A stretch of DNA of 64,000 bases from Nemertoderma westbladi. Lineage: Eukaryota; Animalia; Xenacoelomorpha. The notes under the pieces were generated by a model that saw only the letters and a program-made list of their open reading frames with translations, did not search any database and was not told the origin of the DNA. Location: positions 1-64,000 of the forward strand of contig JAUCBJ010004497.1 of NCBI GenBank assembly GCA_032718475.1. Direction: 5' to 3'. The translations under genes and the position numbers were made by a program. This document shows, in pieces, positions 27,467 through 63,998 of the stretch (position 1 is the stretch's first letter; each line of letters opens with the position of its first letter).

Positions 27467-27554
27467 TATTTCGTTACAAAATATGATATTTAGTATTATT
27501 TTGTTTTACAAATAGCAATTTTAGTTATTATTTATTGCAATAGCATTCCTTGTA

Positions 27555-36239: not shown

Positions 36240-36757
36240 TGTGACGGGATCTACGGATCCCGGTTTATCCGTTGGGTTTTCTATCCACGCGTCCCCGCCG
36301 TTGTGTGAAAGGTAAAATAGTTCTGGTGTCCGGTTATATGTATAAGGTATAATAGTCTGATATATATATAGTATAGTATGCACAATAGGTAATATAAGTA
36401 TGATGGCGGTAGCGGACGGTGACAGAAGTCCCCGTTCCACCCTACTGATCTGACTGAGTAAACTGAATGAATGATTACAGGTTACCGGTTATATTGCACG
36501 GTGGCCTTACTGCTACTCAATCGATGCCATTCCCCCCTCTGATTGGTTATACCCTTGTTGGCGCCCCGTGGAGTATTCCCGTTCACTCCACCTGTTCTCT
36601 CTGGGTTAGGGGTTTGGCCCCTGACCCTCTATTGTGTGCTTCCTTCCCACTCTTATTGGGATGGCACGAGTTGGTTAATTGCCCAATCTCGTGGCTCCCA
36701 ATATTGCTTATCGGCTAATAACTTTATGGGGTGTTGGCGGGATTGAATAAGCTAACA
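36240..36757 (-). repeat. 3' LTR (518 bp)
   Basis: TGTGACGGG...AAGCTAACA; polypurine tract (minus strand ATGGGGGGGAG) adjacent at 36758-36768. Confidence 0.95.
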
Positions 36758-37466: not shown

Positions 37467-40010
37467 TTATCTGTACCTCCTCACGTCCTCCTCCCTGGCC
37501 CGTTTCTTGGTTATCACCGCTCCTCTGGCATCATCCGCTTTCTGCTTCCGGACCTTTGCCGCCACTTCCTTGCTGATCCCGGTCGTCGGCTCCTTGGGCG
37601 CTGGTGTTATTAAAGCCCGATACCGCTTCGCCGGTGGCCCCTCAGAATGGCCTGGTTGTTTCCCTCGTGTGGCGTCCCATAGGATCATCTTCATTGCCTT
37701 TGGTACGTGTTCCGCCAAGAAATCCCTAAACTCCCTCCGGTTCTCTGGTGTCCACCTGTCCAGGTACCGTTGCGTGTTCATAACTCCGGCGAACGATGCC
37801 GCCGTAGCTACCTCTTGATAGGTAAACGGTAACCTTCGCTTTATGATTTCCATGTGGGTCTCCTGGTTTATGAGGAAGAAACCCCACTTGAACTCTTGGG
37901 CCTTCATGCGCTGGCGCGTCATGGCCCCGACGTCGGCCCACTCCTCGAACCTCGTGAACTTCTCCTCGTCGCTCATCCAGTCGCACTCGCGCCCGTAGTG
38001 TCCCCGAAAGTGGCACTTTGGACATCGGTTATGCAACCGTGGACACGCCCCCATCCTGTGACTTGGTTCTCTACAATAGAGACAAAAGGTTCCCCGTTGG
38101 AACCGGTATAGGCAGCTGCTTTCCTGATGGGTCTGTCTCCCACAGTAGTCGCAGCCGAGTACCAATGTCTCGCGTCCCACCTCGTCCTTCGTCCCAAGCG
38201 ATCTCCGCGGTCTATGGAGTCGCTGGTAGGCAAACTTCTCCACGTTGCTCTCCCTGTTTACGTCGATCTCTCCGCCCCTCTCGGGCATCGTCTCCCCGAA
38301 TACTATCCGTGGTGCCGTCCCCGGTTGCTCGCCCAACCTGATGGTGCTCCCCGCGAAATCCATCGCCGGCCCCTCGTGCACCCAGGTCCGCTTGCCGGAT
38401 CTGTTCCAGAAGGCCCTCGCCCCACTGGCCGTCACCACCCTTCCGCCAACCCAGTCCGTGTCCGAGTGGCCTATCCTTTCGATGGGCGGCATCTCTCCGA
38501 ACTCGTCGTCGTCGTCCTCCTCTTCTGGTAGTGTCTCCAATCCCGGTATCCCGATGGATCCACTATGTCCCTTCCCGCCTTGGCTCTCGCCCGTAGCTCT
38601 CCATCCCTCTAGCTCCCTTAACTTCCTTGGCGGTTGGTCGCCCTCGGCGCCCGCTGGTATGGGCATCGCGTGCAACCCCGACGTCGACTGTTTCGGCGAT
38701 CCCACCGTCCATCCCAATTCTCGCCCTAGAGACTCCCCCGAACTCCCCGACGAAGTCCAATGAAGTTCGTCTAGGCCCGCCTGTTCCTCGAAGCCGTAAC
38801 TCTGTGCCCTGGCCTCCTCTTCCCTCTCCTCTGCTTCTATCCTCTCCCGTCTAGCGACTTCTTCCAGTCGCTTTGCTTCCCGTCTATCCATCTCTAGCTG
38901 CTCCCATCTCTGATACGGTGTATCCGTCTCCCCATCTACCAGATGTCGGCTGTTGTAGTACACCGACTCGCCCTTCAGCCCCGGGTGGTCTACCAGACCG
39001 TCAAAGGCCGTCTTAAAGGCTCTCCTGTAGCTTAGGGGTGATCCCGATAACAGAAATGCCCCTGGTTCTCTTTCGATAACTACGGTCATGAATAAGTTAA
39101 GTAAACTTATCATCATCCAGTCCTCCTGCAGGATATATCGCTTCTGATATACCTTTATCGCTCCTCTGCGAAACTGATATACCTCCTGCTTTCCCGGTCT
39201 CGCTCCCCACTTCAGCGAGTTCGCTAGTTCTGCTCCGTATTCTTCCCTAAACTTCCCCCAATCCATTGGTTTGTGGCATACGAGCCCCAATAATTGGCCC
39301 ATCGCCACCGCCCCGCATTGGCCTGAGTTCTCGACCACCCCCAATCCATCCGGTGCCGTCATAGCCATAAAGACTTTCTGCATATCCAGGAGGTTGGTGG
39401 CGTCCGGACCGATGATCCTCTCCGCGTCCTCGCGAATCGCCGATCCCACTTTCGTCGTCGACTTCTCTCTTACTAAGACCTGTACCGCTTTCGGCAGTCG
39501 GTCTAATTTCGGCCCGTCCTTCTTCCCATACGTCCCTAGGTCGAATAAGAAGATGTCCCCATTTGGCGCTGCCAAATGCAAGAGTATGGTCCTGGCCGAC
39601 CCTGCCGTTCCTCGTCTCGAACCCGCTTCGTCTTCCACGGTTCCCTCGTCATCTAGGATCATATATCCTCCTCTGTTGACGGACTCTATGAATCTTTTCC
39701 AGTCCTTCCTCGGCGATTCCCTCGGATACTTCGGAATCCCGAACTTCGCCTCGTCTCCTTTCACCACGTAGTGGAAGTGTTGGAAGATCGCGTTGTCCAG
39801 CGACGGCGTCCCGTAGGTCCCGACCAACCGCTGTTCGTGCGCCTCCCGGAAGTGATCCTGCAGCGCTCGTGCCGCGTGACCCCTTTCCAACCTCTCGTAG
39901 TATCCTCTCGTCTTCTCCTCCGGGTGTCTTTCGGTGAAATCCACCAATATTTCTTTTCCTCCTGACTCCGCCTTTCTCTTCCTGATCAGCTTACTCGCCA
40001 TTCCGAACAC
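37467..40010 (-). CDS. Extra retrotransposon ORF: RNase D/WRN-like DEDDy-type 3'-5' exonuclease + 3 CCHC zinc knuckles
   Basis: Intact 847-codon ORF (first ATG at 40001); ExoI ILDDEG, LHLAAPNGDIFLFD, ExoII KVGSAIRED, LLDMQ, ExoIII-like YILQED; knuckles CDYCGRQTHQESSC, CLYCREPSHRMGAC, CPKCHFRGHYGREC; homologous to 59503-63228. Confidence 0.82.
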   Translation of the reverse strand: MFGMASKLIRKRKAESGGKEILVDFTERHPEEKTRGYYERLERGHAARALQDHFREAHEQRLVGTYGTPSLDNAIFQHFHYVVKGDEAKFGIPKYPRESPRKDWKRFIESVNRGGYMILDDEGTVEDEAGSRRGTAGSARTILLHLAAPNGDIFLFDLGTYGKKDGPKLDRLPKAVQVLVREKSTTKVGSAIREDAERIIGPDATNLLDMQKVFMAMTAPDGLGVVENSGQCGAVAMGQLLGLVCHKPMDWGKFREEYGAELANSLKWGARPGKQEVYQFRRGAIKVYQKRYILQEDWMMISLLNLFMTVVIEREPGAFLLSGSPLSYRRAFKTAFDGLVDHPGLKGESVYYNSRHLVDGETDTPYQRWEQLEMDRREAKRLEEVARRERIEAEEREEEARAQSYGFEEQAGLDELHWTSSGSSGESLGRELGWTVGSPKQSTSGLHAMPIPAGAEGDQPPRKLRELEGWRATGESQGGKGHSGSIGIPGLETLPEEEDDDDEFGEMPPIERIGHSDTDWVGGRVVTASGARAFWNRSGKRTWVHEGPAMDFAGSTIRLGEQPGTAPRIVFGETMPERGGEIDVNRESNVEKFAYQRLHRPRRSLGTKDEVGRETLVLGCDYCGRQTHQESSCLYRFQRGTFCLYCREPSHRMGACPRLHNRCPKCHFRGHYGRECDWMSDEEKFTRFEEWADVGAMTRQRMKAQEFKWGFFLINQETHMEIIKRRLPFTYQEVATAASFAGVMNTQRYLDRWTPENRREFRDFLAEHVPKAMKMILWDATRGKQPGHSEGPPAKRYRALITPAPKEPTTGISKEVAAKVRKQKADDARGAVITKKRAREEDVRRYR

Positions 40011-41210: not shown

Positions 41211-41316
41211 ATTTTTATTTTATTTTATTTTATTTTGTGTGGGAAGGGCGTCTCGCCCTCAATCCCACCCCCCTCAGTCCAAAACTTGGACGACTAAACT
41301 CCACACTAACTCCGCT

Positions 41317-42617
41317 CTAAGGTGCTCCTTCTAAGAGACAGCATTTACCTACCGCCCTCCTGTAGGTTTTTCTGTCCTTCGCACCTATCTTTCCACCTAT
41401 CCGCACTTCCACCGATCGGACTCTTCCGTCCTCGTCGGAGTAGGTGCCTACAACTCTCGCCAACCGCCACTGGTTGTTGATGATAGTATCATCCGTGACG
41501 ATTACGAGATCTCCCTCTCTTAACTCCCTGTTCGGTTTCCTCCACTTGCTTCGCTTATGGAGTGTGGGTAGGTATTCCTCTACCCACCTTCTCCAATACT
41601 CTGCGCTAATTGCTTTAGCTACTTTCCAACTTTGGCGGGAGTGTATATCATCTGGGTCTACACCCCGCATATCGATGGTAGCTGGCCTTTCCATCAGGAA
41701 ATGGCTAGGCGTCAACACGTCTAATGACTCAGGGTCATCATTCTCCGGGTATAGCGGTCTGCTATTAATGATCCCCTCGCACTTCGCAAGTACTGTCCGT
41801 AAGACGTCTTCAGTGCCATGTGGGTGTTCATCAGCTTCGTCATTAGACGTTTTGAACTGCCCACGAGTCTCTCGACGCATCCTAACGTATGTGGTGCATA
41901 CGGCGTCCTTCTCTCCCACTTCACTTGTCGTCTTCTCATGGCCGCTCTGACTTCTTCTCCCTCCAAGATGTCTAAGGCCTCTGCCATCTCACTCTCTGCG
42001 CCCACAAAATTGGTGCCGTTGTCGCTATATATCACCGCGATCGTCCCACCTTTGCGGTCCCTAAACCTTTCTAAGGCGTTAATGAACGCTGATGCGGTTG
42101 CATCTTGGGCGAGTTCTATCCCTACCGCCCGCGTATTGTTGCATACGAAGATAATGCCGTAACGCTTCTCCGTGTGTCGCATCACTTTGATCTTTATCGG
42201 CCCGAACATGTCCACACCGCAGTGCGTGAATGGCGGGTCGTGCTGTCTTACCCTACTCGCCGGTAGTGGCGCCATCTCCTGTACGGCTCGTTCCTTCTTC
42301 GCTCGCCGGCAGGTCTGGCACTGCCCCACTACCGCTTTAACCTTCTTCCTTAGTTGTTTGACCCAATAGGTCCTCCTTATCTCTGTGAGGGTTCGGTTGG
42401 TGCCCCCATGCAGTATCGATTTGTGGGAGTCCCATATGATCTGGTGGACTATAGGCGATCCTGTGGGAATGATGATGGGTTTCGGTGGCACGACTATACT
42501 GTTGTTATATCCCACCCTAGAATTCATTACTAGAATCCCATCCTCGTTGAGTTGTGGCGACAGCGTGATCAACTCGCTATCCCGTCGGAGGTGCTGTTGG
42601 TTACCGACGCGTTCCAC
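41317..42617 (-). pseudogene. BEL/Pao integrase plus DUF5641-type C-terminus (5'-truncated pol, one frameshift near 41830)
   Basis: H..HGG..CQTC zinc finger, PFTHCGVDMFGP, SDNGTNFVGA, GCVERLV, INSRPL, LTPSHFL, WRRWVEEYL, WRLARV, DGRVRSV, KCCLLEGAP*. Confidence 0.94.
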
Positions 42618-43135
42618 TGTGACGGGATCTACGGATCCCGGTTTATCCGTTTGGGTTTTCTATCCACGCGTCCCCGCCGTGTGTGAAAGGTAAAAGAGTT
42701 CTGATGTTGGGTAATATGTATAAAGGTATAATAGTCTGACAGTTGATATAATATAGTATGACACAACAGGTAATATATAATGGCGGTAGCGGACGGTGAC
42801 AGAAGTCCCCGTTCCACCCTACTGATCTGACTGAGTAAACTGAATGAATGATTACAGGTTACTGGTTATATTGCACGGTGGCCTTATTGCTACTCATTCG
42901 ATGCCTTTCCCCCCTCTGATTGGTTGATACCCCTGTTGGCACCCTTTGGAGTGTTTCCGTTCACTCCACCTGTTCTCTCTGGGTTAGGGGTTTGGCCCCT
43001 GACCCTCTATTGTGTGCTTCCTTCCCACTCTTATTGGGATGGCACGAGTTGGTTAATTGCCCAATCTCGTGGCTCCCAATATTGCTTATCGGCTTACAAC
43101 TTTATGGGGTGTTGGCGGGATTGAATAAGCTAACA
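42618..43135 (-). repeat. Middle LTR (518 bp)
   Basis: Same TG...CA sequence as the outer LTRs; PPT and a 3' UTR copy adjacent (43136-~43480 resembles 36758-~37100). Confidence 0.95.
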
Positions 43136-43549
43136 CTCCCCCCCATGCTATCTTCCCGGTAAGAAGATAGCATCAACCAAAAAAAGTGCGTTACAATCCC
43201 GCTGGATCCCGATCTAGTATCGGGTGTGGGGTGGGTATATTTTTTCTCGGAGTCGGCTTTCCAGGCCGCTCCCTATGGGTATGATGTCACTACCCTCTGG
43301 CGTCTCGTGTCGGGCCGATCGTGCGCTTCTCTCACACAATTTTTGTTTCCCCAACACTCTCACCACTCTAACTCCGCTCTCTTCTCTTGCTCTAACTCTT
43401 GGACTTCCCTGTCCCTCACTCTTCCTCTCACTTCTCCTCCCCCACACTTGAATTGCGCCCACATTCTCTTCGCACTCCACACTATCACCTCTCCACTCTC
43501 TTGTCACTCCCTAAGGCTTTAATCTCTAATGCTACCCCTGTGCTATCAT

Positions 43550-44965
43550 ACTATCTACCTACTGCTTACTAACTCTAACTATCTAACTAACTCTGCTAAC
43601 TACTAACTCTTACTACTTCTAGCTCTAACTGAGAGCCTCTAACTTTCTACTGACTCTAACTCTCTACTAAGTCTAACTAACTCCTACTAGCTCTCCACTT
43701 CTACTAACTCTACTTGACTCCTCTGAGTCTACCAACTCTGCTAACTAGCTCTACTAACTCTACTCCACTAGCTCTGCTAACTCTACTCCACTAGCTCTGC
43801 TAACTCTACTAACTAGCTCTACTAACTCTACTCCACTCTTCTAACTACGTGGCGCTTGCGGTGCCCACAACCACTCTACTATATGGCACCCTATGTGCCC
43901 TCTCTGCTCTACTCTACCACCTGGCACCCTATGTGCCCTCTCTACTACACTACTACCTCTCTAACTCTACTACCTGGCACCCTATGTGCCCTCTCTACTA
44001 CTCTACTCTATCTCTAACTCTACTACCTGGCACCCTACGTGCCCGTCTCTACTCTTCTACTCACTGGTACCCTATGTACCCTCTCTACTACCTCTAACAC
44101 TCTACTCTACTACCTGGCACCCTATGTGCCCTCTCTACTCTTCTACTTCCTGGCACCCAATGTGCCCGTCTCTACTCCTCTACTCCCCCTTTACGTCTCA
44201 TCGCCTACACGTGACGCTCTGAGTGCCGGCAGAGTGGGTACGTTAATTATGTGAACTACTACTGACTCTACTAACTCTACTAACTCTCTTCTAACTCTAC
44301 TAACTCTTTTTGTGCCCGGCACCTCTTGTGCCCGGCATCTTCTAACTCTACTAACTCTCTACTAACTCTTTTTGTGCCCGGCACCTCTTGTGCCCGGCAC
44401 CCACCCTAATTAACATACCCTGCTCTTACATCAAACACGTCATCACGCCCGTGCCCCACTAAGTTCAGCGCATTCCCTACTAACTCTAGCTACATGTAGC
44501 TTACGGTGCCCACAACCCTCTACTGCTACTACTAACACCCCTAACTAGCGGTACTACGTACCCTCTTACTACTCTAGCTCTCTCTACTAGCTAGCGGTAC
44601 AACGTACCCTCTTACTACTCTAGCTCTCTCTACTAGCTAGCGGTACTACGTACCCTCTTACTCTTACTAACTCTCTAACGGTACTACGTACCCCTTAACT
44701 CTTACTCTCTAACGGTACTACGTACCCTCTAACTCTTACTCTAACTAGCGGTACTTACGTACCCTCTAACTCTAACTCTAACTAGGTACTACGTACCTAC
44801 TAACTCTCTAACTATCGGTACTACGTACCCTCTAACTCTAACTCTAACTAGGTACTACGTACCTACTAACTCTCTAACTATCGGTACTACACGTACCCTC
44901 CTACTAACTCTTCTACTAACGGTACTACGTACCACCCTTTAACTAACTAACTAACTAACTAACTC
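43550..44965. repeat. Internal low-complexity repeats: (CTACTAACT)n, GGCACCCTATGTGCC hairpins, and a second GGTACTACGTACC array (44548-44965)
   Basis: Directly visible tandem motifs. Confidence 0.88.
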
Positions 44966-45016
44966 TTACTACCTAACTTCTACCTACTCTATTATTTAAT
45001 TATTTTCTTATTTTAA

Positions 45017-48000
45017 TTAAATAATTATTTTATATTTTGTGCGTGGGAAGGGCGTCTCGCCCTCATTCCCACCCCCCTCAGTCCAAAACTTTGGACGACT
45101 AAAAACTCTCAGGTGCCCCTTCTTCCAGTAGGCACTCTCCTGCTGCCCTCCTATACGTCCTCTAACTCTTCGCCACACTCTCTTCGGTGCTACCTTTGCT
45201 GGCCTCCCCCTTCGTATGTGCGCTGGCATTAAGGCCCTCGACGACCCCCGCTCGTCCCTCGGTATACGCGGTGTCTGCCCGTGCAATGCCCCCTCGCACT
45301 GTGTCAGCCGTGCGTGTGTATGCAACACGCCTCCTTCTACTATCCCGACTCCCTTATGTTTGCTAATGGGCTTCTCTGCCCCTGGTTTAGTCCTTTCATA
45401 TCCTCTCTCTTTCCAACACTCTCCGGATCTGTGTCCTTTTACCACACATCGATGACATAGTCCGTTTGCGTCTGTGTAGGCTACACGATCTCGTTTGGGC
45501 AACGCTTGCCAGTACTTGCAACTCCTGGTCTTATGGGTTCCGTCCCGATGTAATTGACATTGGAATCCTGGATTATAGCGTTTCCTGTATAGTCCTTCAC
45601 GTATCGCGCTTAGGTTTATATGTACCGATTTAATGTTTTGGTTGTCTAGACTCGGCCTACTGGGTATATTGGGATTGTGTTTATTTTTGGTGTTATTTTC
45701 TTCCTGTCCCTGCCACGGTGTGGCCCTACTACCAGCTAACTGTGGACTGGTAGTCCCCTGTACGGCCGCGTGTGGTGGTGACTGTCCGCACGACCTGCTC
45801 TCGTCCAGGGAGTTCGATGTTCTTGCTCCTATCGGGGTATATTGTCGATATTGTGATGGGGGAATGTCACCCTGTCCCCCCCCGGCCGGTATGTTTGGTA
45901 CTGGGGTTGATGTTAATACATTGGGGCCCATACGTCTATCTCCAATAACTCCCCCCTCCCCTGGATATATATTATGTCCCTGTGTATTATAGTCATGCTG
46001 CTGTACCGATATAGGCCTACCTACCTCTCGCCTACCTACCGGTATGTACTCCGCGACTTCCGGGTTTAATTCCGTCGTTCGCGCTACCCCATCGCTTACT
46101 CTATCTCTCCCAGCATGGCCTATAATAGTATGTGCAGTAAGGCCTACAGTATGTCCTGCAGTCTGCATGTGCCCTTCCGAACCGAAGCTTATTCTTCGCG
46201 AATCTCGAATCTCCCCGCGACTACTGCACTCTCGATCGGCAGCTATATCCCGTCGGGAAGCTTCTCTTCGATCCCCTCTCCTGTTCTCGACTTTGTATTG
46301 GTACCTCCTGTACCCCTCTCTTGGCGTGCAGTGCGTTTCTCCGGGGCGACGGCAATCTCCCGAAGTTCGACCCCACTGGCTCCCTGACTCCATCTCTACT
46401 GTCGACGGTCCGTTATCCGTCCTCGCACTGCTATCGTTCGTGGCGACACTTCTTCTACTATCTTCTCTTCTTCTCTTTTCTGTGTAGTATTCCGGCTCGT
46501 GAGATCTCTCGTCGACCTCCCGGTTAAACTCCACTCTTCCTCCTCCCTCTTCTAATCGGGCTCGACGCTTCGTCTGCCCTCTCGCGACGTCAACCTGCCT
46601 CTCTCTACTCGATCGCACGCCGCTGGGGATACTCGCAATCCCCCTATTACTCTCCGTCGCCGGGTGTTGCGGTTTACCTGATTCGGCCCGCGCATTATCC
46701 GCTGACGGCTGTGGGACACTCTCTGCCCCCCCTCTCTCTCTACTAGTCTCTCGCGGTGGGGTGCCCGTAGCCCCCCCCCACCCGCCACTTCTAACTTCAC
46801 TATTTCTTACTACACTTCTATACCCCTCTTGTGGGGCATTCTCTGCCCCCCCCTCTCTCGCCACTAATCTTCTGTGGTGGGGCGCCCGTAGCCCCCCCCC
46901 ACCCGCCACATCTAACTTCAATATCTCTTACTTCGTCTCTACACCCCTCTCTAGTCGACACACTATCTCTACTACGGCTGGGTCTATTCACCCCCGCCTC
47001 TCTCTCTACTACTGCGTGGCCTACCAGGCCCACCCCGGGTTGGCTCAACCGCGCCACTTCCTGCCTACTAACTACGTGGCCTACCAGGCCGCCGTCTGCC
47101 GGGTTCACATTAATAGCACCATTCCCAATATTATTTGTTAAATTAATTAAATTATTAGAACCATTAGAATTTGAAACGGGATTATTATTTAAATTATTTA
47201 AGTTAGAATTATTATTATTTTCAAAATTTAAATTGCTATTCGAATTATTTGAATTATTTTGATTATTCTGAATATTTGAATTAATATTATTATTTGAATT
47301 TAAACTTAAATTACTACTACCGGGTAAAATATTTCCTGTAATAAAGGGATTAGGGTTATCTACTACGGTACTATTAATACCAATATTTCCTAACGCACTA
47401 CTACTACCCCCCACGCCCGTACGGTTACTGTATCTACTGTACGTGTACCGCACGCTCTGTTCTCTTGCCTCACGCTCTTCGCGTTCACTCTCTTGCTCCT
47501 TCCTTCCCCTCAGTCACCACTCTAATTCTTCCATTTTTAATTTATATGCCATGCGTTCACTCTCTCGCACCCGTCTTTCTTTTGCGGAGGATGTAGCAGA
47601 CTTATAGGTTGCGACGGACTCCCGCCGCCCCTCCGTCCTACTAACTTTCCCCCGCTCTCCGGGGTTCTCGCTGACCAACGAGACCGAATCCTCGGAGCTA
47701 ACCTCGGATTCGCCCTCGTGCGGTCCCGCCCAACCCACTAACTTAACTTCCCTGGCATCGACTAAGTATGGCCCTATGTACACTACACCAGGCCCCATAC
47801 CCCTACGTTCCCATAGCCCAAACAGTTCGAAGGCAACCCCTCTCGCTCTCTCCTCGGCCAGTTCTCCCTGCCCAGAACGCACTAGGTAATCAAAGTATCT
47901 GTTCGACTCTCCTAGTCGTCTCCTCAACTTCACCTGGTCTATCTCAGCCCCTCCTCTAGCTTCCTTCAGTTGCTCCCGGGTCGCGGCGTAGGCTCGTCGG

Positions 48001-48401
48001 AGCCGGACGACCCCGACGTCCTCGTCGTCGACATCTCCTCTCTCCCTCCGGGTTCGGCGTCGTACCGTCGGCCCCACCGTTGCCGTTCCGGTGGGCCGTC
48101 CGTCGCCCTCGGCCTCTCGCTGGCCGGCGACATCGGCATATCGACCGCCGCCCTGTGTCGACTCGTCTCTCTCCTCTCCTCCCTTCTCGTCTCCTTCCCT
48201 CGACTCGCTCTCCGGTTGTAGACGACCCCCCACATCTTGGTTCGCCGGGTTGCTCGTTGTCGACGTGGCGTCAACCTGCGTCGACGTGGTCGGCGTAGCA
48301 TCGACCGGCGTCATGGGTTCGTATCGTCTCGCCGTGGCCTCGCGGATCGTTAGATCGTCGTCCGGGGTCCGCGGCGGTGTCGTTCCCCTCTCTCGACTCA
48401 T
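45017..48401 (-). pseudogene. gag-like region of the BEL/Pao element (three ORF pieces), joined to a remnant of the pol C-terminus
   Basis: ORFs 48401-47514, 47453-46818 (Asn-rich) and 46921-45017 with knuckles CQLHRDGTHKTRSC and LCHRCVVKGHRSGEC; CLLEEGAP remnant at ~45107-45135 matches the pol end CCLLEGAP at 41317-41345. Confidence 0.72.
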
Positions 48402-48565
48402 CGTCGTCTTTGGTGGCTGGCAGCCACAGTCTGTCAGTTGGTTAGATCTAGTTCTATCACTGTCAGACTGTTAGGGCAGCTGCTAGGATTCTATCTCTGT
48501 CAGGGCAGCTGGGCGGATCTAGTTCTGTCACTGTCAGGGCAGCTGGGCGGATCTGATTCTGTCAC

Positions 48566-49083
48566 TGTGACGGGATCTACGGATCCCGGTTTATCCGTTG
48601 GGTTTTCTATCCACGCGTCCCCGCCGTTGTGTGAAAGGTAAAATAGTTCTGGTGTCCGGTTATATGTATAAGGTATAATAGTCTGATATATATATAGTAT
48701 AGTATGCACAATAGGTAATATAAGTATGATGGCGGTAGCGGACGGTGACAGAAGTCCCCGTTCCACCCTACTGATCTGACTGAGTAAACTGAATGAATGA
48801 TTACAGGTTACCGGTTATATTGCACGGTGGCCTTATTGCTACTCAATCGATGCCTTTCCCCCCTCTGATTGGTTGATATCCTTGTTGGCACCCTTTGGAG
48901 TGTTTCCCTTCACTCCCTGTGTTCTCTCTCGGTTAGGGGTTTGGCCCCTGACCCCTATTGTGTGCTTCCTTCCCACTCTTATTGGGATGGCACGAGTTGG
49001 TTAATTGCCCAATCTCGTGGCTCCCAATATTGCTTATCGGCTTATAACTTTATGGGGTGTTAGCGGAATTGGATAAGCTAACA
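48566..49083 (-). repeat. 5' LTR (518 bp)
   Basis: TG...CA, followed on the + strand by TSD TCCGA; upstream of gag on the minus strand. Confidence 0.95.
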
Positions 49084-53756: not shown

Positions 53757-56540
53757 GGTGAATGTCAGACTGGAGAGACCCTGACTACAACTCTCCAGTT
53801 GGCTAGCATCCCACCTCGGTTCTCACAACGCCGGTGAATGTCAGACAGGAGAGACCCAGACTACATCTCCCCAGTTGGCCAGCATCCCAACGCGGCCCTT
53901 ACAACTCCGGTCAATGTCAGACAGGAGAGACCCAGACTACATCCCTCTAGTTGGCCAGCATCCCACCTCGGCTCTCACAACCCCGGTGAATGTCAGACAG
54001 GAGAGACCCAGACTACATCTCCCCAGTTGGCCAGCATCCCAACGCGGCCCTTACAACTCCGGTGAATGTCAGACAGGAGAGACCCTGACTACAACTCTCC
54101 AGTTGGCTAGCATCCCACCTCGGCTCTCACAACCCCGGTGAATGTCAGACAGGAGAGACCCAGACTACATCTCCCCAGTTGGCCAGCATCCCAACGCGGC
54201 CCTTACAACTCCGATGAATGTCAGACAGGAAAGACCCAGACTACATCCCTCTAGTTGGCCAGCATCCCACCTCGTCCCTCACAACCCCGGTCAATGTCAG
54301 ACAGGAGAGACCCAGACTACATCTCTCTAGTTGGCCAGCATCCCACCTCGGCCCTCACAACCCCGGTGAATGTTAGACAGGAGAGACACAGACCACATCT
54401 CTCTAGTTGGCCAGCATCCCACCGCGGCCCTAACAACCCCGGTGAATGTCAGACAGGAGAGACCCAGACTACATCCCTCTAGTTGGCCATCATCCCACCT
54501 CGGCCCTCACAACCCCGCTCAATATCAGACAGGAGAGACCCAGACTACATCTCCCCAGTTGGCCAGCATCCCACCGCGGCCCTCACAACCCCGGTAAATG
54601 TCAGACAGGAGAGACCCAGACTACATCTCCCCAGTTTGCCAGCATCCCACCGCGGCCCTCACAACCCCGGTGAATGTCAGACAGGAGAGACCTTGACTAA
54701 ATCTTTCCAGTTGGCCAGCATCCCACCGCGGCCCTCACAACCCCGGTGAATGTCAGACAGTAGAGACCCAGACTACATCTCCCCAGTAGGCCGGCATCCC
54801 ACCTCGGCCCTCACAACCCCGGTGAATGTCAGACAGGAGAGACCCAGACTACATCTCCCCAGTTGGCCAGCATCCCACCGCGGCCCTCACAACCCCGGTG
54901 AATGTCAGACAGTAGAGACCCAGGCTACATCTCCCCAGTAGGCCGGCATCCCACCTCGGCACTCACAACCCCGGTGAATGTCAGACAGGAGAGACCCAGA
55001 CTACATCTCCCCAGTTGGCCAGCATCCCACCGCGGCCCTCACAACCCCGGTGAATGTCGGACAGGAGAGACCCAGACTACATCTCCCCAGTTGGCCAGCA
55101 TCCCACTGCGGCCCTCACAACCCCGGTGAATGTCAGACAGGAGAGACCCAGACTACATCTCTCCAGTTTGCCAGCATCCCACCACGGCCCTCACAACCTC
55201 GGTCAATGTCAGACAGGAGAGACCCAGACTACATCTCCCCAGTTGGCCAGCATCCCACCGCGGCCCTCACAACCCCGGTGAATGTCAGACAGGAGAGACC
55301 TTGACTAAATCTTTCCAGTTGGCCAGCATCCCACCGCGGCCCTCACAACCCCGGTGAATGTCAGACAGTAGAGACCCAGACTACATCTCCCCAGTAGGCC
55401 GGCATCCCACCTCGGCCCTCACAACCCCGGTGAATGTCAGACAGGAGAGACCCAGACTACATCTCCCCAGTTGGCCAGCATCCCACCGCGGCCCTCACAA
55501 CCCCGGTGAATGTCGGACAGGAGAGACCCAGACTACATCTCCCCAGTTGGCCAGCATCCCACCGCGGCCCTCACAACCCCGGTGAATGTCAGACAGGAGA
55601 GACCCAGACTACATCTCTCCAGTTTGCCAGCATCCCACCACAGCCCTCACAACCTCGGTCAATGTCAGACAGGAGAGACCCAGACTACATCTACCCAGTA
55701 GGCCAGCATCCCACCGCGGCCCTCACAACCCCGGTGAATGTCGGACAGGAGAGACCCAGACTACATCTCCCCAGTAGGCCGGCATTCCACCTCGGCCCTC
55801 ACAACCCCGGTGAATGTCAGACAGGAGAGACCCAGACTACATCTCCCCAGTTGGCCAGCATCCCACCGCGGCCCTCACAACCCCGGTGAATGTCGGACAG
55901 GAGAGACCCAGACTACATCTCCCCAGTTGGCCAGCATCTCAACGCGGCCCGTACAACACTGGTGAATGTCAGACAGGAGAGATACAGACTACATCTCCCC
56001 AGTAGGCCGGCATCCCACCTTGGCCCTAACAACCCCGGTGAATGTCAGACAGGAGAGACCCAGACTACATCTCCCCAGTAGGCCGGCATCCTACCTCGGC
56101 CCTCACAACCCCGGTGAATGTCAGACAGGAGAGACCCAGACTACATCTCCCCAGTAGGCCGGCATCCTACCTCGGCCCTCACAACCCCGGTGAATGTCAG
56201 ACAGGAGAGACCCAGACTACATCTCCCCAGTAGGCCGGCATCCTACCTCGGCCCTCACAACCCCGGTGAATGTCAGACAGGAGAGACGCAGAATACATCT
56301 CCCCAGTTGGCCAGCATCTCAATGCGGCCCGTACAACCCCGGTGAATGTCAGACAGGAGAGACCCAGACTACATCTCCCTAGTAGGCCGGCATCCCACCT
56401 CGGCCCTCACAACCCCGGTGAATGTCAGACAGGAGAGACCCAGACTACATCTCCCCAGTAGGCCGGCATCCTACCTCGGCCCTCACAACCCCGGTGAATG
56501 TCAGACAGGAGAGACCCAGACTACATCTCCCCAGTTGGCC
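53757..56540. repeat. 76-bp GC-rich satellite (~36 copies)
   Basis: Unit GGTGAATGTCAGACAGGAGAGACCCAGACTACATCTCCCCAGTTGGCCAGCATCCCACCGCGGCCCTCACAACCCC with point variants, no spacers. Confidence 0.97.
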
Positions 56541-57342
56541 ATAGTATGCAGCAAAATTAGCCCGTGAGAAAGCTACGCCCGCATCAAATCTTCGCCTTCA
56601 AAATGACCAACTATCATCCGGCTGAAACTTTGCCCGCGGGCAATCATCGCCCATGAGCAAACATCGCCCACTAAACAATGATTTTTTGGTTAGAAAAAGC
56701 CGTCTCTAATTGAAGAGACAGCAACAATACCTGCAATATCCTACTGTAAAGTTTGTGAATCAAATCATAAATCCGACCTTCTCACCAAAACAGTAAACTC
56801 TAAGTAAGCGAATATATTGCAGTATCGATCTCTTATAACCGGTGAGGCAGAAAACAGTCTACGAGCAGACAAACTTCGATAAAACAAATCCCGCGCAGCG
56901 AATCCTAAAATCAGGCTGACTCACTGACGGACTAAGGGGCTCGTATACTTTGCCGCGGTGTGATTTATATGGTTGGGCAAAGGGACGCTAGCTAGGTATA
57001 GAGCAGATTTGGAGATGTCTAACTAGCGGGCAAAGCACAGTACGGACAAAAGTTAATTTTATATATTTTGAGGTGTAAATAATTTCTAACGCGCGTGTGT
57101 TAATTCTGAACGGTCAAAACAGTTTTGCTCCTTCACATATATAATTACTGGGTACGGTGTGCATTTTACGAATATTCTAATTTTGCAACTTGTAGGTCCA
57201 ATACTCACGAATGATAAGGTTCCTTCCCCTCTTGCGTATTTCCAGGACTCAAATTCAGGCATAAGGTTAATGCTACGCCCAGAATTCGGCAATTTTAGGT
57301 ACCAGGTCCCTGATACTAAGAAGAGATGTGTTAGTTTACTAC

Positions 57343-57715
57343 TGTAGGCGTACAGGTACTAATAGCTATCCTGGCTCCTATCTAGAATTTTAGTCACCCA
57401 GGTAGTCCGGGTAACTTCCTATTAGGGCGTTGGCGGGGACACGGTAGATGTTAGTATATCCCTGATAGCCTCAATTTATTTGCGCCTAGCGTAAACTGCC
57501 CTACCGCCTGAACGGTACAATCCCAATTCAGGTGAAAACACAGCAACCCCCCTAGCCTACAAGTTCTGATGTAATGGACACTGTCGTACTGCAAATAGTC
57601 ACAGACGCACCTGTACTTAGCAAGAGTTAAGCGTACAGTTTGCTGCACCCTAACCAATGTGTATGCCTTGTACCGGTGTGCCTACGTCCTATCTGCGTAC
57701 TAGTATCTGCCTGCG
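57343..57715 (-). repeat. Probable 3' LTR of the second cargo-carrying BEL/Pao element
   Basis: Imperfect terminal inverted repeat TGTAGGC...GCCTGCG, minus-strand AATAAA near 57476, strong polypurine tract (minus strand G-run + AGGAGAGAG) abutting at 57716-57734; partner LTR is outside the window. Confidence 0.6.
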
Positions 57716-58169
57716 CTCTCTCCTCCCCCCCCCCGTAGGAATGTGAAGGTCTACTGTGGGTTTTCCTGAATCAAGACAGTACAGTCCCTATGATGTAATT
57801 TTGGGCTTACAGCGTGTCACTACGTCTACCTTTTGATCTTTTGGTCTTACACTTAGGTAGCAAGGATCGAACGCTGTCTAACCTTTCAGGCGATGGGCGA
57901 ATAACTCAAAATGGTATTGCGGGTTGTCTCTCGTCTACATTCCCGTGATGTTCCCGTTCATTGCTGCGGCCCGATCTCTAGCCGGCCATCCTGTCCCTGA
58001 GTTTGTTCACCGTAGTGAAACCATAGTAAAACAGATAGAAAACTGAGGGAATATTCTGACTTTATTACAGAAGATACAATTATAATACAATGTAATCTGA
58101 GAATAAACTAAGCACGACAGAATAAATCTGAGAAGTATAGATTGAAATATAAGATTGAATAACTAATGA

Positions 58170-58330
58170 ACAAATCGCACCTTTATATAGCAAATTTGTG
58201 CCGCAATCAATCGAGAAAATTCTCGATTGTTCTATGGGTTCTAACGAGGTTTTAAAGATAGCTATTGGTCCAGCTAATATATAACTTACACGACATTGGT
58301 TACAATCAAATAACTACAGTCTCATTGGTA
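58170..58330 (-). promoter_or_regulatory. Putative Pol II promoter (three CCAAT boxes plus TATA)
   Basis: Minus-strand CCAAT at ~58325, ~58296 and ~58265, and GCTATATAAAGG at ~58180-58191. Confidence 0.4.
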
Positions 58331-58401
58331 CAGACAAATGCAATTAATTTGTAGCGGTTAATTTAAATGAGTTGAAATTCTGCACAAAAAATAATTCGCA
58401 C

Positions 58402-58472
58402 TTACTAGGATTCGAACTCGATACCTACTACACATATAATTTCCAACGCTCTACCAACTGAGCTACTGAACC
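58402..58472 (-). ncRNA. tRNA-derived Pol III-type sequence (pseudo-tRNA/SINE head)
   Basis: GGTTCAGTAGCTCAGTTGGTAGAGCG (A box/D arm) ... GAGTTCGAATCC (B box), followed by a T6 run at 58386-58391; acceptor and anticodon stems do not pair well. Confidence 0.6.
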
Positions 58473-58799
58473 ACTTGACCGATAGATGCACAAATGATAG
58501 GACCAATACGAATGAGAACTCAAAGCAATCTTTACAAAGTTAATCCGAATAAAATAAAATTTTGAAAATCCACGGCATTTAGGGAATATAATTCTATACC
58601 GCTCCATGAAAACAGGATATTATCGTGCATAAAATATACGGTTTTCACCAATAATCAATCAAACTATAGAATACTTAGGGCGTACTTACATATTTACAAT
58701 TAAGTTTCAAACAATACTTCCTTTCTACGTAATGATTCGATACAAAATTAATTACAAATTCAAACTTTACGTATTTAAGGCTTTACTAAGTAAGTACAA

Positions 58800-59460
58800 T
58801 ATAAATCTAAATTAAATTCACCAATATAAATCTATTGCATCTCAATATTGCATAAATTCAAACAATTACAAATACAAATAAATGAAAACAATAAGAAAGG
58901 CTCGCAAGTCTTCCATCTACTATTGCATCTCAAATATTGCATAAATTCAAGTAATTACAAATACTTTCGTACCTAAATGTAGATTGCATAAGTTTGGAAT
59001 AATTACAAATATGAGTCTTTCTGAGCACAAAATTTTCTGTCTATAAAACTTTCTCTTTAGGTACAAATACTGCTTATAAAATATAAATTGCATAATATTC
59101 GGAACAATACAAATTGCATAAGTTTGGAATAATATAAATTGTATAAGTTCGGAATAATTACAAATATAAATATAAATTCTTACAAATATAAACTCTCTTT
59201 GGGTAGTCTTACTAAATATAGATATAAACTGCATAAGTTTAGAATAATATAAACCTTTGCATCTCAAATATGAAACATAAATCTTTCAAATATAAGTTCC
59301 TTCTAAACTTTCTAAATTGCATAAATTCGGAACAATACAAATTGCATAAGTTTGGAATAAGCACAAATATAAAATATAAGTTTTTACTAAATATGAGTCC
59401 CTTTCAGAATACAAAACTTTCTAAATATAAAACATATAATTCAAATAAATCACAAATCCT
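58800..59460. repeat. Degenerate AT-rich repeats (AAATTGCATAAGTTTGGAATAA-like) in the element's 3' region
   Basis: Multiple imperfect copies downstream of the extra ORF. Confidence 0.7.
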
Positions 59461-59502
59461 AAGAAAGGCTAACGAGTCTTCCGTCTACCCTTGCCCTCCC
59501 TT

Positions 59503-62500
59503 TTATCGTTTAGTTGATCGAGCCCTGCCGCGTCCTCGAAAACTGCGCACAGGTGACTTTGCTCGCGATATGGGACTTGTGGGGCGAGTCACTGGTTTAC
59601 TTGGGACGTTGAGAGACGGTGCAACTATTTCCTCGCAAATTCGTCTATTTGGCATCCCAAAACCTCGACCGATTCCTCGTGACCGATCAGTCGTCACTAC
59701 AGTTGGTAGAACGTCTGGGAACGCGTGAGAAGCGGACGACGCAGACCCGAGAGTAGCTTGCGCCCCCTGTTGATCAGCTGGTGTATGTCCCGATCCTCCT
59801 ACTGGTTCTCTTGGAAGTGATACCGTATCCCGAGTAACTCGAATGGTCGGCTCTACTCCCTTGCGTTCTTCTACATTAATAATTTTCTTCAATTGTTGGC
59901 CCACTTTCTGGACCCGTATGATCCTACCCTGTCCGTCCTCCCGAGGGTGACGTGCAGACGGCGCAACCGGAGTGGCTGGTATATTCGTCGCCTCTAGGAC
60001 CTCTTCTTCCTCGAATACGCTCGCTCGTATACGTTTGTGGTAAAACGCGGCTCGGTACGCCCATGCGACGGTTAACCAAGCTCCCTTGTTCCGCTTTTCA
60101 GTTCGGAAACGATCGAATTCACCATACGTAATCCGATTAATGACTTTCTGAAAATTCCACGTGTTTTTGTTATCCGGGTGAATCTGTAACAGATATTCGC
60201 GCACCACTCGGAATCCGCTGTCGTGGGGCAAAATATCGACAACCTCGATAAGTTCGTCATATTGAGGCATAGCGGAGATGTATCCTTCCGACATCATCGT
60301 CTGGGGATTTACCGCCCAAAATCCGAGATGCACTCTCATCGGAAACCGTCTTCTCTGTGCCGATACATGTTCGTCGGCTAAATCCTCCCACTCATCAAAT
60401 AACTTCCTCACAAGTTTTACAGATTCGTGTTCATAAGGTATATCTCTCAGTTGGCATTCAGATGCTCGATGTCCCTTTATATTGCAGTAAGTACATTGAG
60501 CCATAAATCTCCAGCAAGTATAAAAGGTATGAGACCCTTGATCCCCACACCATCCACAGATTAGCTGAGTCGTAGTAATGTGCTTTCCACTGCACTTTGC
60601 CATATGATGTCCAGCGACGCCACATTTGCTACACATCGTATTAGCAGGGTACCACACTCGTTCGTATATAAGATCTCCAATCGGTCGAGCGCTTCCTCCC
60701 ATACTATAATCGTAATCATCTGGGTCTATGGGTTGGTAGGTTTCTGAAGGTTGTATACAAACTATAGCATCTGTTGCTTCAAGTTGTCGAATCTCCGTCT
60801 GAGATTTCTTCGGGAGGTTCCTTTCTATCTCAAGAAGTTCCTCTAAAGGATCGTCGGCGATCGTAGTAGTTACGTTGAAATCATCACCGAGGTGACCGAT
60901 AGGCGCGCGCGTCTGCCGTGATTCATCCGTAATTTCCACAATACGTTCTCCTTCATAGGGTAACAATGTAAACATAGATGGTCTTTCGATAAGAGATCCC
61001 GCACAGCGAAGATACACGTCTCGAAATATGCTAAATCCTGCTCGAGTAAAGGCATTACACTGAGCGTCGGAGTTGTAGAAGGGTTCAAGGAATCGTCTAA
61101 ACACGTCGGTACGAATTCTCCCTTCCATGTAGAACGTATGATCTTCTCCGAGACAAAGTGGATGTCTTTTGAGAGTCCGAGACACAATGTCGGCGATTAG
61201 GCAAACATTCACTGACGACTCTATCGCTAAATAATATTGTAAGACCGCTCTTGGAGGTGACGTAATAGCCCAATACACGCATCCTCTCCATTTAAGCTGT
61301 GATTCAAACTCACTCATATCTGGAGTATCACCTTCTCCATAAGTTTCAATATACTTGTTCCTTTTACCTTCCTTATAATCCCAATTGAATAACAGGTAGG
61401 AAATGTATCCAGTTCCAGTCTTCTGAGTATTATACTCACGAAAATATCCCTGTTCTATAGACCACAGAATAAGAGGTCGAGTGTCGACGTATGGTGTCGG
61501 TAGTCGGTCATCGCTGTCCGTCATGCCGGCGAAGTCGCTAATTAAATCCTCCCTTACTCCTGATCCAACCTTTACAACAGTTTTATCTAAAATCATGTTT
61601 CTTACCATCTTCGGTAGCATTCTAGCGTCAATATTACAAGCTTGGTCCATCTTCTTTACTATATCGGTGATAAGATGGTGTCGCTTTGTATTCGCTGGAG
61701 GTATCGGCATTCGTTTGTCGCTCCTCTGTCTACTGAAAACGTGCAGGACTCCGTCCGCCGCTCTAATCTGTATAGTCTTAGAAGTCAAACTCTGCTGATG
61801 ACTGCCGCCCTCGTTATCGTAAAACATATAACCGTTTTCCTGAAACGATCTAAACGTCCTAGTCCATTCATCCAACAATTCTTCCGAAGGTTGCCAAATC
61901 TTCTCTATATCCTTATCCTCATCGAAACGAATAACCTTACCTCGCCAATCTGCGGCAATATCTGTATCCGACTCGAAGGTTCCGATTCCAATCCATAAAC
62001 GAATCGTCTTGGTTAGATATCCTTTCAGATTACTCGGAGCTATGTCGGCACCAGCTCTATCCAGTTCCTTAAAATCTTGGATATGAGGTGGAACGTTGTT
62101 CACGACCTTTTGAGTAATATGTCTACGTAAATCATATATCTTACTCATATCGCTGAAAACAACTGCAGGAAGAAACTCCAAGTTTGAAATGATTTCTGGA
62201 TGATCCACGATGGGTATTTCGTACGTCGTATCCTGTCGGACTGGTATACTAATAGGGAAATTGAGTGTCGTACTCAATGGTTTCGTAGCTGAAGTACTAT
62301 ACGGTTGCATTTCTCTTGGTCTCTCCGGGGATGCAATCTGTAATCTCTGAATAACGTTTTGAGCAAAGTTTATGCTCTCGAAAACTTCCGGTGTCATCTC
62401 CTTAGCTGAAGTTTGATCGTGTGACGTCCAATGGCAAGGTAGGCTCGCGAGTCTTCCACCCCATTCTTCCATCTCACCTTTCTTGAAAGCCTTGTAGGCT

Positions 62501-63228
62501 CTGTATAGGCTAAGAGCTTCTTTCTTTTCGCGGGTTGACTGATTCGCCTCGTCCAGCGTAAGTTCAAATACATCGGGTTCAACAACCTTAGGTGGGTAAA
62601 TGACAGTTTCTCCCGCCTTTGGTCCGGTCATAGCAAATGAATGATATGGATTCGATAAAGGATACCCTCCTTCCTGGTAGCGTAGTTGTTGATGATTCGA
62701 ACACCTCGCCAATATCGGTTCGGGATTTTCCTTATTCAAACGCATCGGAATCGCATTTCGTTGTTCGCGCATACAAGAACCGCATTGATAATAAAGTTTA
62801 TAAACTGAAAATGCTTCTTTGGTTTCTCTATCGTCCCCTCGAGTTCGTCTGTAAAGATGCATTCCATCGAATTCATCGCGTACCGCGGGCATAGGTTCGT
62901 GCGCCTTTAGGTATTGCATGGTATGATACAAACGACTAATTTCAGTATCGGGGTCTTCGCTAATGTCTCCCGTATCACACAAAGCATCGTACGGGTAAAG
63001 TTCGTTGAAGGTTTGGCGCAAACTTTCGATTCTTTCGTTCAATGCGTTTTGCCTTCTCTTTAATACGTTCGAGTCATATTTAGTTCTCGCGAGTTTCGCT
63101 GTACTTTCCGATAATTCTTTTATACCAAATATAGTGTAGTCCTTGGCTCCAAATCTTTCGAATGGCGCTGCTGCCTCCTCTTGGATATCATATCCCCATC
63201 TCGGCTCTCCTTGTATCCCTTTCTCCAT
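59503..63228 (-). CDS. Extra retrotransposon ORF: N-terminal extension + RNase D/WRN-like DEDDy-type exonuclease + 3 CCHC zinc knuckles
   Basis: Intact 1241-aa ATG ORF; ExoI FYDNEG, IQIRAADGVLHVF, ExoII KVGSGVRED, YVDTR, ExoIII-like YLAIE; knuckles CSKCGVAGHHMAKC, CGWCGDQGSHTFYTC, CTYCNIKGHRASEC; homologous to 37467-40010. Confidence 0.82.
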   Translation of the reverse strand: MEKGIQGEPRWGYDIQEEAAAPFERFGAKDYTIFGIKELSESTAKLARTKYDSNVLKRRQNALNERIESLRQTFNELYPYDALCDTGDISEDPDTEISRLYHTMQYLKAHEPMPAVRDEFDGMHLYRRTRGDDRETKEAFSVYKLYYQCGSCMREQRNAIPMRLNKENPEPILARCSNHQQLRYQEGGYPLSNPYHSFAMTGPKAGETVIYPPKVVEPDVFELTLDEANQSTREKKEALSLYRAYKAFKKGEMEEWGGRLASLPCHWTSHDQTSAKEMTPEVFESINFAQNVIQRLQIASPERPREMQPYSTSATKPLSTTLNFPISIPVRQDTTYEIPIVDHPEIISNLEFLPAVVFSDMSKIYDLRRHITQKVVNNVPPHIQDFKELDRAGADIAPSNLKGYLTKTIRLWIGIGTFESDTDIAADWRGKVIRFDEDKDIEKIWQPSEELLDEWTRTFRSFQENGYMFYDNEGGSHQQSLTSKTIQIRAADGVLHVFSRQRSDKRMPIPPANTKRHHLITDIVKKMDQACNIDARMLPKMVRNMILDKTVVKVGSGVREDLISDFAGMTDSDDRLPTPYVDTRPLILWSIEQGYFREYNTQKTGTGYISYLLFNWDYKEGKRNKYIETYGEGDTPDMSEFESQLKWRGCVYWAITSPPRAVLQYYLAIESSVNVCLIADIVSRTLKRHPLCLGEDHTFYMEGRIRTDVFRRFLEPFYNSDAQCNAFTRAGFSIFRDVYLRCAGSLIERPSMFTLLPYEGERIVEITDESRQTRAPIGHLGDDFNVTTTIADDPLEELLEIERNLPKKSQTEIRQLEATDAIVCIQPSETYQPIDPDDYDYSMGGSARPIGDLIYERVWYPANTMCSKCGVAGHHMAKCSGKHITTTQLICGWCGDQGSHTFYTCWRFMAQCTYCNIKGHRASECQLRDIPYEHESVKLVRKLFDEWEDLADEHVSAQRRRFPMRVHLGFWAVNPQTMMSEGYISAMPQYDELIEVVDILPHDSGFRVVREYLLQIHPDNKNTWNFQKVINRITYGEFDRFRTEKRNKGAWLTVAWAYRAAFYHKRIRASVFEEEEVLEATNIPATPVAPSARHPREDGQGRIIRVQKVGQQLKKIINVEERKGVEPTIRVTRDTVSLPREPVGGSGHTPADQQGAQATLGSASSASHAFPDVLPTVVTTDRSRGIGRGFGMPNRRICEEIVAPSLNVPSKPVTRPTSPISRAKSPVRSFRGRGRARSTKR

Positions 63229-63887
63229 AATTAGGGTGTAGTTACATAATCATTACTACTAGAGGGAATACAACAGAGTTTGTAGTTAGTTGTGAGGAGA
63301 CGTGAGAGTTTCGTCTGCCCTTTGGGCTTCGACAACGCTCTAACCTCCTACCCATAGCCTAAGATCTAGGGTTTCTTTAATGACACGCTGCTTCTTATCT
63401 AAAATTTTTTGCCGAAGTAAAAACGAATTTGGGCTAAACTGGCCGTGAGTCTAAAATACTCACTTTTTGATCCCAAACTATTATCAGAAAATAAGCAATC
63501 AAGAATTAGTAATAAATATAGGGGAGTCTATTTTGACGTAACTTATTGAAACAAGACCGTGTAAAATTTAATTAAAATTTTAAGAAAGGCTCGCAAGTCT
63601 TCCTCTCTTGTTTCTCTAATTTTAAGTTCCACCCGACTGTACCCTGAAATCTATTCACTGGAGAAAATTTTAAAAATTTTTCAAATCCAAATGGATTGTC
63701 TAAAATTTCGAAAATGTCTCAATATTGTGAGTTCCAAGTAGAATTCCATTTCTTATACCTACAAATCCCGCTCCTATGTGACACATAAGGGTACCACCCT
63801 CAATGTTCACATATAAAGACAATGGAATTCTACCGCTGTCCTTACTACGGTGTACAGGTACGTGGAAATCTATTTGTAAACTCCTAA

Positions 63888-63998
63888 TTATTTACTAGTA
63901 TTAGGTGGAGATTTGTAATCTCCAGACTCGTTACGAGTCTCTTCAAGAAGTACGAGACGTTGAGTCGGTCTGTCTACTGTACGCGCTTGCGTCCTTCT
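63888..63998 (-). CDS. C-terminal end of a BEL/Pao pol (partial, continues beyond the window)
   Basis: Manual translation RRTQARTVDRPTQRLVLLEETRNESGDYKSPPNTSK*; RPxxxLxLLE is the characteristic BEL/Pao pol terminus. Confidence 0.65.
   Translation of the reverse strand, partial: RRTQARTVDRPTQRLVLLEETRNESGDYKSPPNTSK

Follow-up and report, generated by a model that had tools for sequence, protein, structure and literature searches.

Why some long terminal repeat (LTR) retrotransposons carry enzymes in the position of env is an open question. In bdelloids, DEDDy exonuclease genes are known as the third open reading frame (ORF3) of the Juno and Vesta LTR elements and of Athena/Terminon elements (PMC5408684; PMC6431247; PMC6338049); as described in the accessible parts of these reports, they form a separate frame after pol, lack a transmembrane segment, have one Asp replaced by Glu (DEED) and are of unknown function. 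Here we describe two genes that share these features and lie in a 64,000-nt stretch of DNA from Nemertoderma westbladi (contig JAUCBJ010004497.1, assembly GCA_032718475.1), called the window below, to which all coordinates refer. They belong to two divergent elements, of which element 1 is clearly and element 2 probably of BEL/Pao type, and their products (P0002 for element 1, P0001 for element 2) are predicted to combine a DEDDy-like 3'-5' exonuclease domain with three CCHC knuckles. We regard the presence of such a cargo in both elements, under selection in the family tested, as real. It constitutes a divergent exonuclease-like family that Pfam misses, with a built-in module predicted to bind RNA, and the two elements of this genome that carry it are themselves very different.

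The likeness to the bdelloid ORF3s, which is drawn from their published description, is incomplete. As far as the available text goes, the bdelloid hosts are Ty3/Gypsy or Penelope-like elements, whereas the host here is of BEL/Pao type; knuckles are reported in PMC5408684 for gag and pol and not for the ORF3s, whereas the window genes encode three; and no departure from neutrality was seen in the bdelloid elements, for which env and GDSL frames were tested, whereas the element 2 family is under purifying selection. TbRND, the RNase D of trypanosomes (PMC7797062; PDB 7C42), likewise has tandem CCHC knuckles behind a 3'-5' exonuclease; there RNA binding is provided by the CCHC domain, which greatly increases cleavage and 3' trimming. 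According to the accessible part of that report TbRND is a cellular mitochondrial enzyme with four knuckles after a short linker, unlike the window family, in which three knuckles follow a linker of 170-300 residues and are accompanied by a family-specific motif. Only the knuckles of TbRND were matched in our searches (7C42/7C45, E 0.085-0.16) and it was missing from the list obtained with the exonuclease alone, so that the resemblance is likely to reflect convergence or remote kinship. With EXD2, WRN, Egalitarian and RNase D (PF01612) the ORF3s share, in order, the ExoI DxE, the ExoII LP...K-x-G-x-x-x-x-D and the ExoIII Tyr; unlike these proteins they fall below Pfam detection, carry Glu at the fourth Asp and have no helicase, HRDC domain or membrane anchor.

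Third coding regions between pol and the 3' LTR are also present in the BEL/Pao elements Cer13, Tas and Atlas, but in the accessible text their product is a fusion glycoprotein (PMC8742986, PMC9094657), and the Belpaoviridae profile of the International Committee on Taxonomy of Viruses names only gag, pol and env (PMC8742986). The Dada transposases, in the available description, combine a transposon-encoded DEDDy exonuclease with zinc fingers in one protein, as ORF3 does, but Dada is a DNA transposon and its DEDDy domain is inserted within the transposase (PMC3706591). The accessible text of a BEL/Pao survey (PMC3118150) does not use the word exonuclease, six integrase-end motifs sought in the available portions of its supplements were not found there, and the accessible parts of PMC9094657 and PMC11662393 mention no exonuclease for Cer13. 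Our literature search returned no report of an exonuclease ORF in BEL/Pao or of a DEDDy cargo with knuckles; Repbase, Dfam and GyDB lay outside that search and prior annotation there is therefore possible. An exonuclease domain may also be present in some nematode Cer elements.

Homology and domain layout of the ORF3 genes

That the second element carries a homolog of the same cargo gene had been proposed in a sequence-only reading of the window, and the proposal held when the two proteins were aligned with shuffled controls. All of the motif pairs that it had quoted are present and collinear. BLASTP gave two collinear blocks, one exonuclease-like (E 6e-7) and one comprising the knuckles and the motif that follows them (E 6e-8); the observed score was reached by none of 300 full-length shuffles and, for each block, by none of 500. 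When cysteines were masked, 3/500 shuffles reached the score, and for the post-knuckle motif alone the figure was 6/500 when a wide interval was compared and 0/500 for a narrow interval. At the level of sequence P0001 and P0002 are confirmed as collinear homologs. P0002 had been given 847 residues, which is correct if an upstream GTG is used and becomes 844 from the ATG. The longer N-terminus ascribed to P0001 was found as described, with ExoI at residue 466 compared with 112 in P0002, and the CxxC..CxxH noticed within it is likewise present, as a pattern.

A phmmer search with residues 401-1000 of P0001 against 1.84 billion representatives gave four matches (P0003-P0006). Two of them, P0003 and P0005, matched through gag knuckles of a generic kind and were set aside. 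The metagenome homologs P0004 (558 aa) and P0006 (605 aa), both from ENA contigs, aligned with the two window proteins across the entire layout of exonuclease-like domain, acidic linker, three CCHC knuckles and post-knuckle motif. All four members are uninterrupted frames that share 23-33% identity, and each of them has the three knuckles and the residues D, E, D and Y of the exonuclease-like domain. In five of the six possible pairs the exonuclease score was reached by 0/500 shuffles, and in the remaining pair by 1/500; each exonuclease row scored 29-66 bits on a profile built from the remaining rows, whereas the best of 999 shuffles gave 5-12 bits. The post-knuckle motif taken alone was significant in 4/6 pairs, the exceptions being P0001 with P0004 and with P0006. 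These comparisons support the placing of both window genes in a wider family with P0004 and P0006, and a profile of the four members offers a means of screening animal genomes. Word-index protein searches added no relatives: nothing was returned for residues 400-1000 of P0001, and the other searches gave only one query member each, which is weak evidence because known members were also missed; locus scans confirmed nothing (viral, 3/3 empty; metagenome, 2/2; prokaryote genomes, 1/1), and a search of phages and plasmids gave no match.

The exonuclease domain is predicted to be DEDDy-like by several weak but agreeing lines. The ExoI D-x-E and the ExoII D occur in all four members and align to RNase D; with hhalign, ExoI, ExoII and ExoIII were aligned in order to E. 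coli RNase D (E 1.3e-4, probability 54%). Among PDB sequences the four-sequence profile placed EXD2, Egalitarian and WRN at the top (E 0.015-0.17), and the Atlas clusters neighbouring the family, which include an EXD1-like cluster, were either PF01612 clusters or unnamed; the cluster nearest P0006 combines PF01612 with zf-CCHC and is mostly from Euglenozoa (score 0.89, a lead only). At the Pfam cut-off PF01612 itself was matched by none of the four. P0004 and P0006 retain the full D-E-D-Y-D; in both window proteins ExoIII reads Y-x3-E in place of Y-x3-D, with an Asp one place further in P0002, and for this reason they are classed as DEDDy-like and not as strict DEDDy members. On these comparisons a DEDDy fold is very probable. 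Structure models had pLDDT values of 32 and 36, which makes them unreliable, and fold searches with them gave no significant match; weak rows for RNase AS and QIP exonuclease were not counted.

The highest 19-residue Kyte-Doolittle mean was 1.38 in P0001 and 1.30 in P0002. There is thus no hydrophobic segment and no transmembrane anchor in either protein, so ORF3 is not an env. From the pol stop to the start of ORF3 there are 659 nt in element 2 and 1315 nt in element 1. Four consecutive stops in the ORF3 frame just before the ATG indicate that ORF3 of element 2 is a cistron separate from pol. The pyrimidine tract and AG upstream of these stops resemble a splice acceptor, and the gene may be expressed through a spliced or internal RNA. 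A 22-nt motif occurs before (63582), inside (62436) and twice after (59461, 58893) the element 2 gene.

Selection on the element 2 family

The stretch containing ORF3 of element 2 was found in 6 of 9 listed public runs, none of them on record as RNA. Thousands of contigs match it at 80-99% identity, which shows that many divergent copies exist; copy number cannot be derived from contig count or depth. Variants were analysed at the 40 best-supported of about 104 places in the ORF across these runs. At these, 31 of 40 variants were synonymous, compared with 12.5 expected when the same letter changes were placed at random positions in the ORF (0/20000 randomisations; rough omega 0.13), and 30 of 40 fell at third codon positions. 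Synonymous changes made up 7/9 in the exonuclease, 7/8 in the knuckle region and 2/5 in the linker. No indel at a 10% share was listed inside ORF3; the wider stretch has 41, and each of the 12 that were shown lay outside it. The synonymous excess, together with the lack of listed indels, indicates purifying selection on the element 2 family, to which the analysis applies. We are confident that ORF3 is a selected accessory gene of the element, and the data support the view that it is functional and not a decaying capture, at least in this family. Three of seven joints seen in public runs remove 2.0-2.1 kb including the exonuclease and are out of frame; deleted derivatives of element 2 that lack the exonuclease (60944-63095) therefore exist.

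The two host elements and the origin of the gene

Element 1 (36240-49083, minus strand) is clearly of BEL/Pao type as judged by its integrase, in which Integrase_H2C2 (E 2.7e-13), rve (4.9e-5) and DUF5641 (1.4e-25) were detected; the DUF5641 tail is associated with BEL/Pao. Three LTRs, of a size within the 0.2-1.2 kb given for BEL/Pao (PMC8742986), lie inside a single TCGGA target-site duplication and make up two differently deleted tandem units (Table 1). The polypurine tract GGGGGGGAG stands immediately before the TGT at 36757. In the first unit, which lacks ORF3, there are remnants of gag, spacer repeats, the 3' region and, at 45161, the final integrase codons in a second copy; the integrase and ORF3 are in the second unit. 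Between gag and integrase this rearranged copy showed no long frame and no motif of a reverse transcriptase (RT) or protease. The arrangement with three LTRs may be a real rearrangement or an assembly artefact. The leader was compared with the BEL/Pao pattern of an 18-nt primer-binding site for tRNA-Arg or tRNA-Gly: in this rearranged copy, and without a comparison to host tRNAs, the 139 nt that follow the 5' LTR contain no TGG. The first 9 nt of the leader (48557-48565) are exactly complementary to a site within the LTR (48745-48753), a match equalled in 1/1000 shuffles, and the leader carries 3.6 copies of a 34-nt repeat; self-priming is possible. A 34/66-nt tandem array lies between pol and ORF3 (40504-41195).

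Element 2 is probably of BEL/Pao type, an identity based on a 14-residue match. The 14-mer at 63983 scores 19 against the last DUF5641 positions of element 1; this score is reached by 6 of 62176 window 14-mers, two of which are element 1 itself, and the 14-mer is the best of 325 local ones, with 0.03 expected. Of the BEL-type pol end claimed upstream of the gene, the RPTQRLVLLEE frame and its stop at 63888 are indeed there, but its 31 codons gave no Pfam match and no BLASTP alignment with the pol end of element 1. Contigs of 3/4 runs leave the window sequence at 63983/63984 and continue with other letters, so this copy of element 2 is interrupted by a junction at that point, and to extend it beyond 64000, as the sequence-only reading suggested, may fail for that reason. 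On the other side a polypurine tract and an LTR had been placed; a repeated terminal region with LTR-like signals was found, but there is no clear polypurine tract, and the LTR, for which two CA ends are candidates, was not delimited. Within this region a tRNA-like patch (58400-58471, minus strand) has A-box-like and B-box-like motifs and a D-arm and is present in other copies; ARAGORN and Rfam did not report it, its folding is matched by shuffles (24/200) and it is possibly an RNA polymerase III promoter or the head of a short interspersed nuclear element. The earlier statement that the DNA of the two elements shows no visible similarity was correct, the best blastn match being 14 nt (E 0.98).

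The gene had been interpreted as a functional module kept in place within one BEL/Pao lineage. A functional gene and a wider family are borne out; the claim of inheritance in place along one lineage is weaker. In the accessible text of PMC5408684, ORFs, DEDDy ORFs among them, were exchanged between unrelated bdelloid retroelements, and a shared position is therefore no proof of vertical descent. Whatever its mechanism, the gene may have been taken separately by each element, either out of a pool of mobile retroelement ORFs or from paralogs in the host. In the exonuclease, P0001 has higher scores with P0004 and P0006 (121 and 110) than with P0002 (78), GC content at third codon positions is 0.41 in one window gene and 0.68 in the other, and no RT was found in element 1 from which a tree could be built. 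Nevertheless, position, strand and whole layout are the same in both elements, both genes lie 0.7-1.3 kb past an integrase-end-like stop and all four members are uninterrupted; we consider separate capture possible but doubtful.

Table 1. Positions of the ORF3 genes, their predicted domains and the surrounding element features in the window
Feature	Positions	Strand	Remarks
ORF3 of element 2 (P0001, 1241 aa, intact)	59503..63228	-	purifying selection
N-terminal extension of P0001, residues 1-445, without family match	61894..63228	-	missing in the 3 homologs; 9/11 listed variants synonymous
Possible zinc finger of P0001, C149-x2-C152 ... C176-x2-H179	62692..62784	-	pattern only
Predicted DEDDy-like 3'-5' exonuclease domain of P0001, residues 446-690	61159..61893	-	D471, E473, D561, Y666; E670 at fourth Asp position
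Three tandem CCHC knuckles of P0001, C866-C925	60454..60633	-	
Post-knuckle motif F-[DE]-E-W ... A-D ... R ... G-F of P0001	60307..60399	-	common to family
Spacer between pol end and ORF3 of element 2, 659 nt	63229..63887	-	pyrimidine tract, AG, then four in-frame stops before ATG
Last 31 codons of probable integrase of element 2, BEL/Pao-like end	63888..63983	-	stop at 63888
AT-rich 3' region of element 2 with 25-nt repeats	58699..59502	-	
Repeated terminal region holding 3' LTR of element 2	56711..58698	-	TATA-like 58189, AATAAA 58066, candidate CA ends 58004, 56711
ORF3 of element 1 (P0002, 844 aa)	37467..40001	-	homolog: D117, E119, D192, Y289, E293 (D294 adjacent), three knuckles
Integrase of element 1, two frames: Integrase_H2C2, rve, DUF5641	41317..42617	-	
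5' LTR of element 1, 518 nt, TG..CA	48566..49083	-	TCGGA flank
Inner third LTR of element 1	42618..43135	-	93.5% to 5' LTR; joined directly to integrase
3' LTR of element 1	36240..36757	-	96.3% to 5' LTR; polypurine tract before, TCGGA flank

Possible roles of ORF3 and neighbouring sequences

We tentatively propose that ORF3 encodes an RNA 3' trimmer that acts in the replication of its own element, most likely on the RNA that primes reverse transcription. The three knuckles would grip single-stranded RNA and feed it to the active site, as in TbRND, and the DEDDy-like 3'-5' exoribonuclease would trim RNA 3' ends; trimming fed by knuckles is suggested because TbRND has the same pairing of an exonuclease with tandem CCHC knuckles. 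Maturation of tRNA 3' ends is an activity of RNase D-type enzymes, and the annealing of primers is one of nucleocapsid knuckles. Taken with the complementarity in the element 1 leader, these activities are the reason for favouring the priming step as the target, and because that complementarity was noticed post hoc, in one rearranged copy, the proposal as a whole stays short of an even chance. Its parts differ: that the protein is an active RNA 3' trimmer appears reasonably probable from its sequence, whereas we would put a target in the element's own primer or genome RNA, taken overall, slightly below the proposal itself. A larger version is improbable, namely that an old BEL/Pao lineage has, where env would lie, its own enzyme for primer maturation, in which nucleocapsid-like knuckles are fused to an RNase D-like trimmer. 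If it were true, the primer would be annealed and trimmed at a non-tRNA site and the element would be freed from ordinary host tRNA priming.

Several points weigh against trimming of primer RNA. The hint from the leader is weakened by its origin, and the 5' end of element 2 lies outside the window; present sequence data do not distinguish RNA from DNA as the substrate. Both window proteins have Glu where the fourth catalytic Asp is expected, and this may lower or abolish activity. Searches of Pfam, NCBIfam and PHROGs gave no useful match for the family proteins, every PDB sequence match was above E 0.01, and the HMMER score for RNase D was only 0.7 bits, which 11/999 shuffles reached. On the side of selection, the count covers 40 of about 104 variant rows, and low-depth divergent contigs of the element 2 family do show gaps.

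The trimmer might instead act in trans as a counter-defence, on host silencing RNAs such as precursors of Piwi-interacting RNAs (piRNAs) or small interfering RNAs, or by removing from element RNA the tails that mark it for decay, and so weaken silencing. Expression separate from pol fits a trans-acting factor, the nearest profile kin include EXD2, Egalitarian, WRN and an EXD1-like cluster, and the similarly built TbRND breaks down small U-tailed RNAs in the accessible account (PMC7797062). Our literature search found no paper on a suppressor of this kind. Mature piRNAs are 3'-protected, and a benefit shared among copies would be expected to place weak selection on the copy that encodes the factor, yet selection is strong; we therefore think this role rather unlikely. 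The Glu at the fourth position, the place of Egalitarian as second PDB match and the resemblance of the knuckles to nucleocapsid would also suit a non-catalytic RNA adaptor, as in Egalitarian and EXD1, that transports, localises or packages element RNA. As all four members have D, E, D and Y without exception, P0004 and P0006 keep the fourth Asp, and Glu is still a carboxylate, we regard an adaptor as unlikely.

A role on DNA, in proofreading or in trimming the 3' ends of complementary DNA before strand transfer or integration, is a little harder still to defend. WRN and EXD2 are among the PDB matches, and the DEDDy domain of Dada has been proposed to process cleaved 3' ends (PMC3706591, accessible text), but ORF3 is a separate gene that is not fused to RT or integrase. 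Tandem CCHC knuckles usually bind single-stranded RNA, as they do in TbRND. An envelope substitute or a chance hitch-hiker without a role for the element, suggested by the position of ORF3 in the place of env, is already largely refuted by the missing hydrophobic segment and the strong purifying selection and is very improbable. As the 1241-aa protein is intact and soluble, its substrate and its role are open to direct tests.

Other mobile sequences occur in the window. One more BEL/Pao-like gag-pol, the third in the window, is decayed and broken into many pieces (22280-26400, plus strand); it has weak DUF1759 and DUF1758 matches, and no ORF3 homolog was found in it by tblastn. A piggyBac-like transposase in two frames lies at 12724-14504 (plus strand; DDE_Tnp_1_7, E 2.6e-34). 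Three RT frames resembling long interspersed nuclear elements, labelled by eye, were seen at 3465-4865 (minus), 27525-28619 (plus) and 31135-35998 (plus); the last comprises an ORF1 and an endonuclease-RT ORF that is cut at 35998, about 240 nt from the 3' end of element 1. A 21-nt-based tandem array at 5138-7880 yields spurious long ORFs, and a 76-nt satellite is present in 36.6 copies at 53757-56541.

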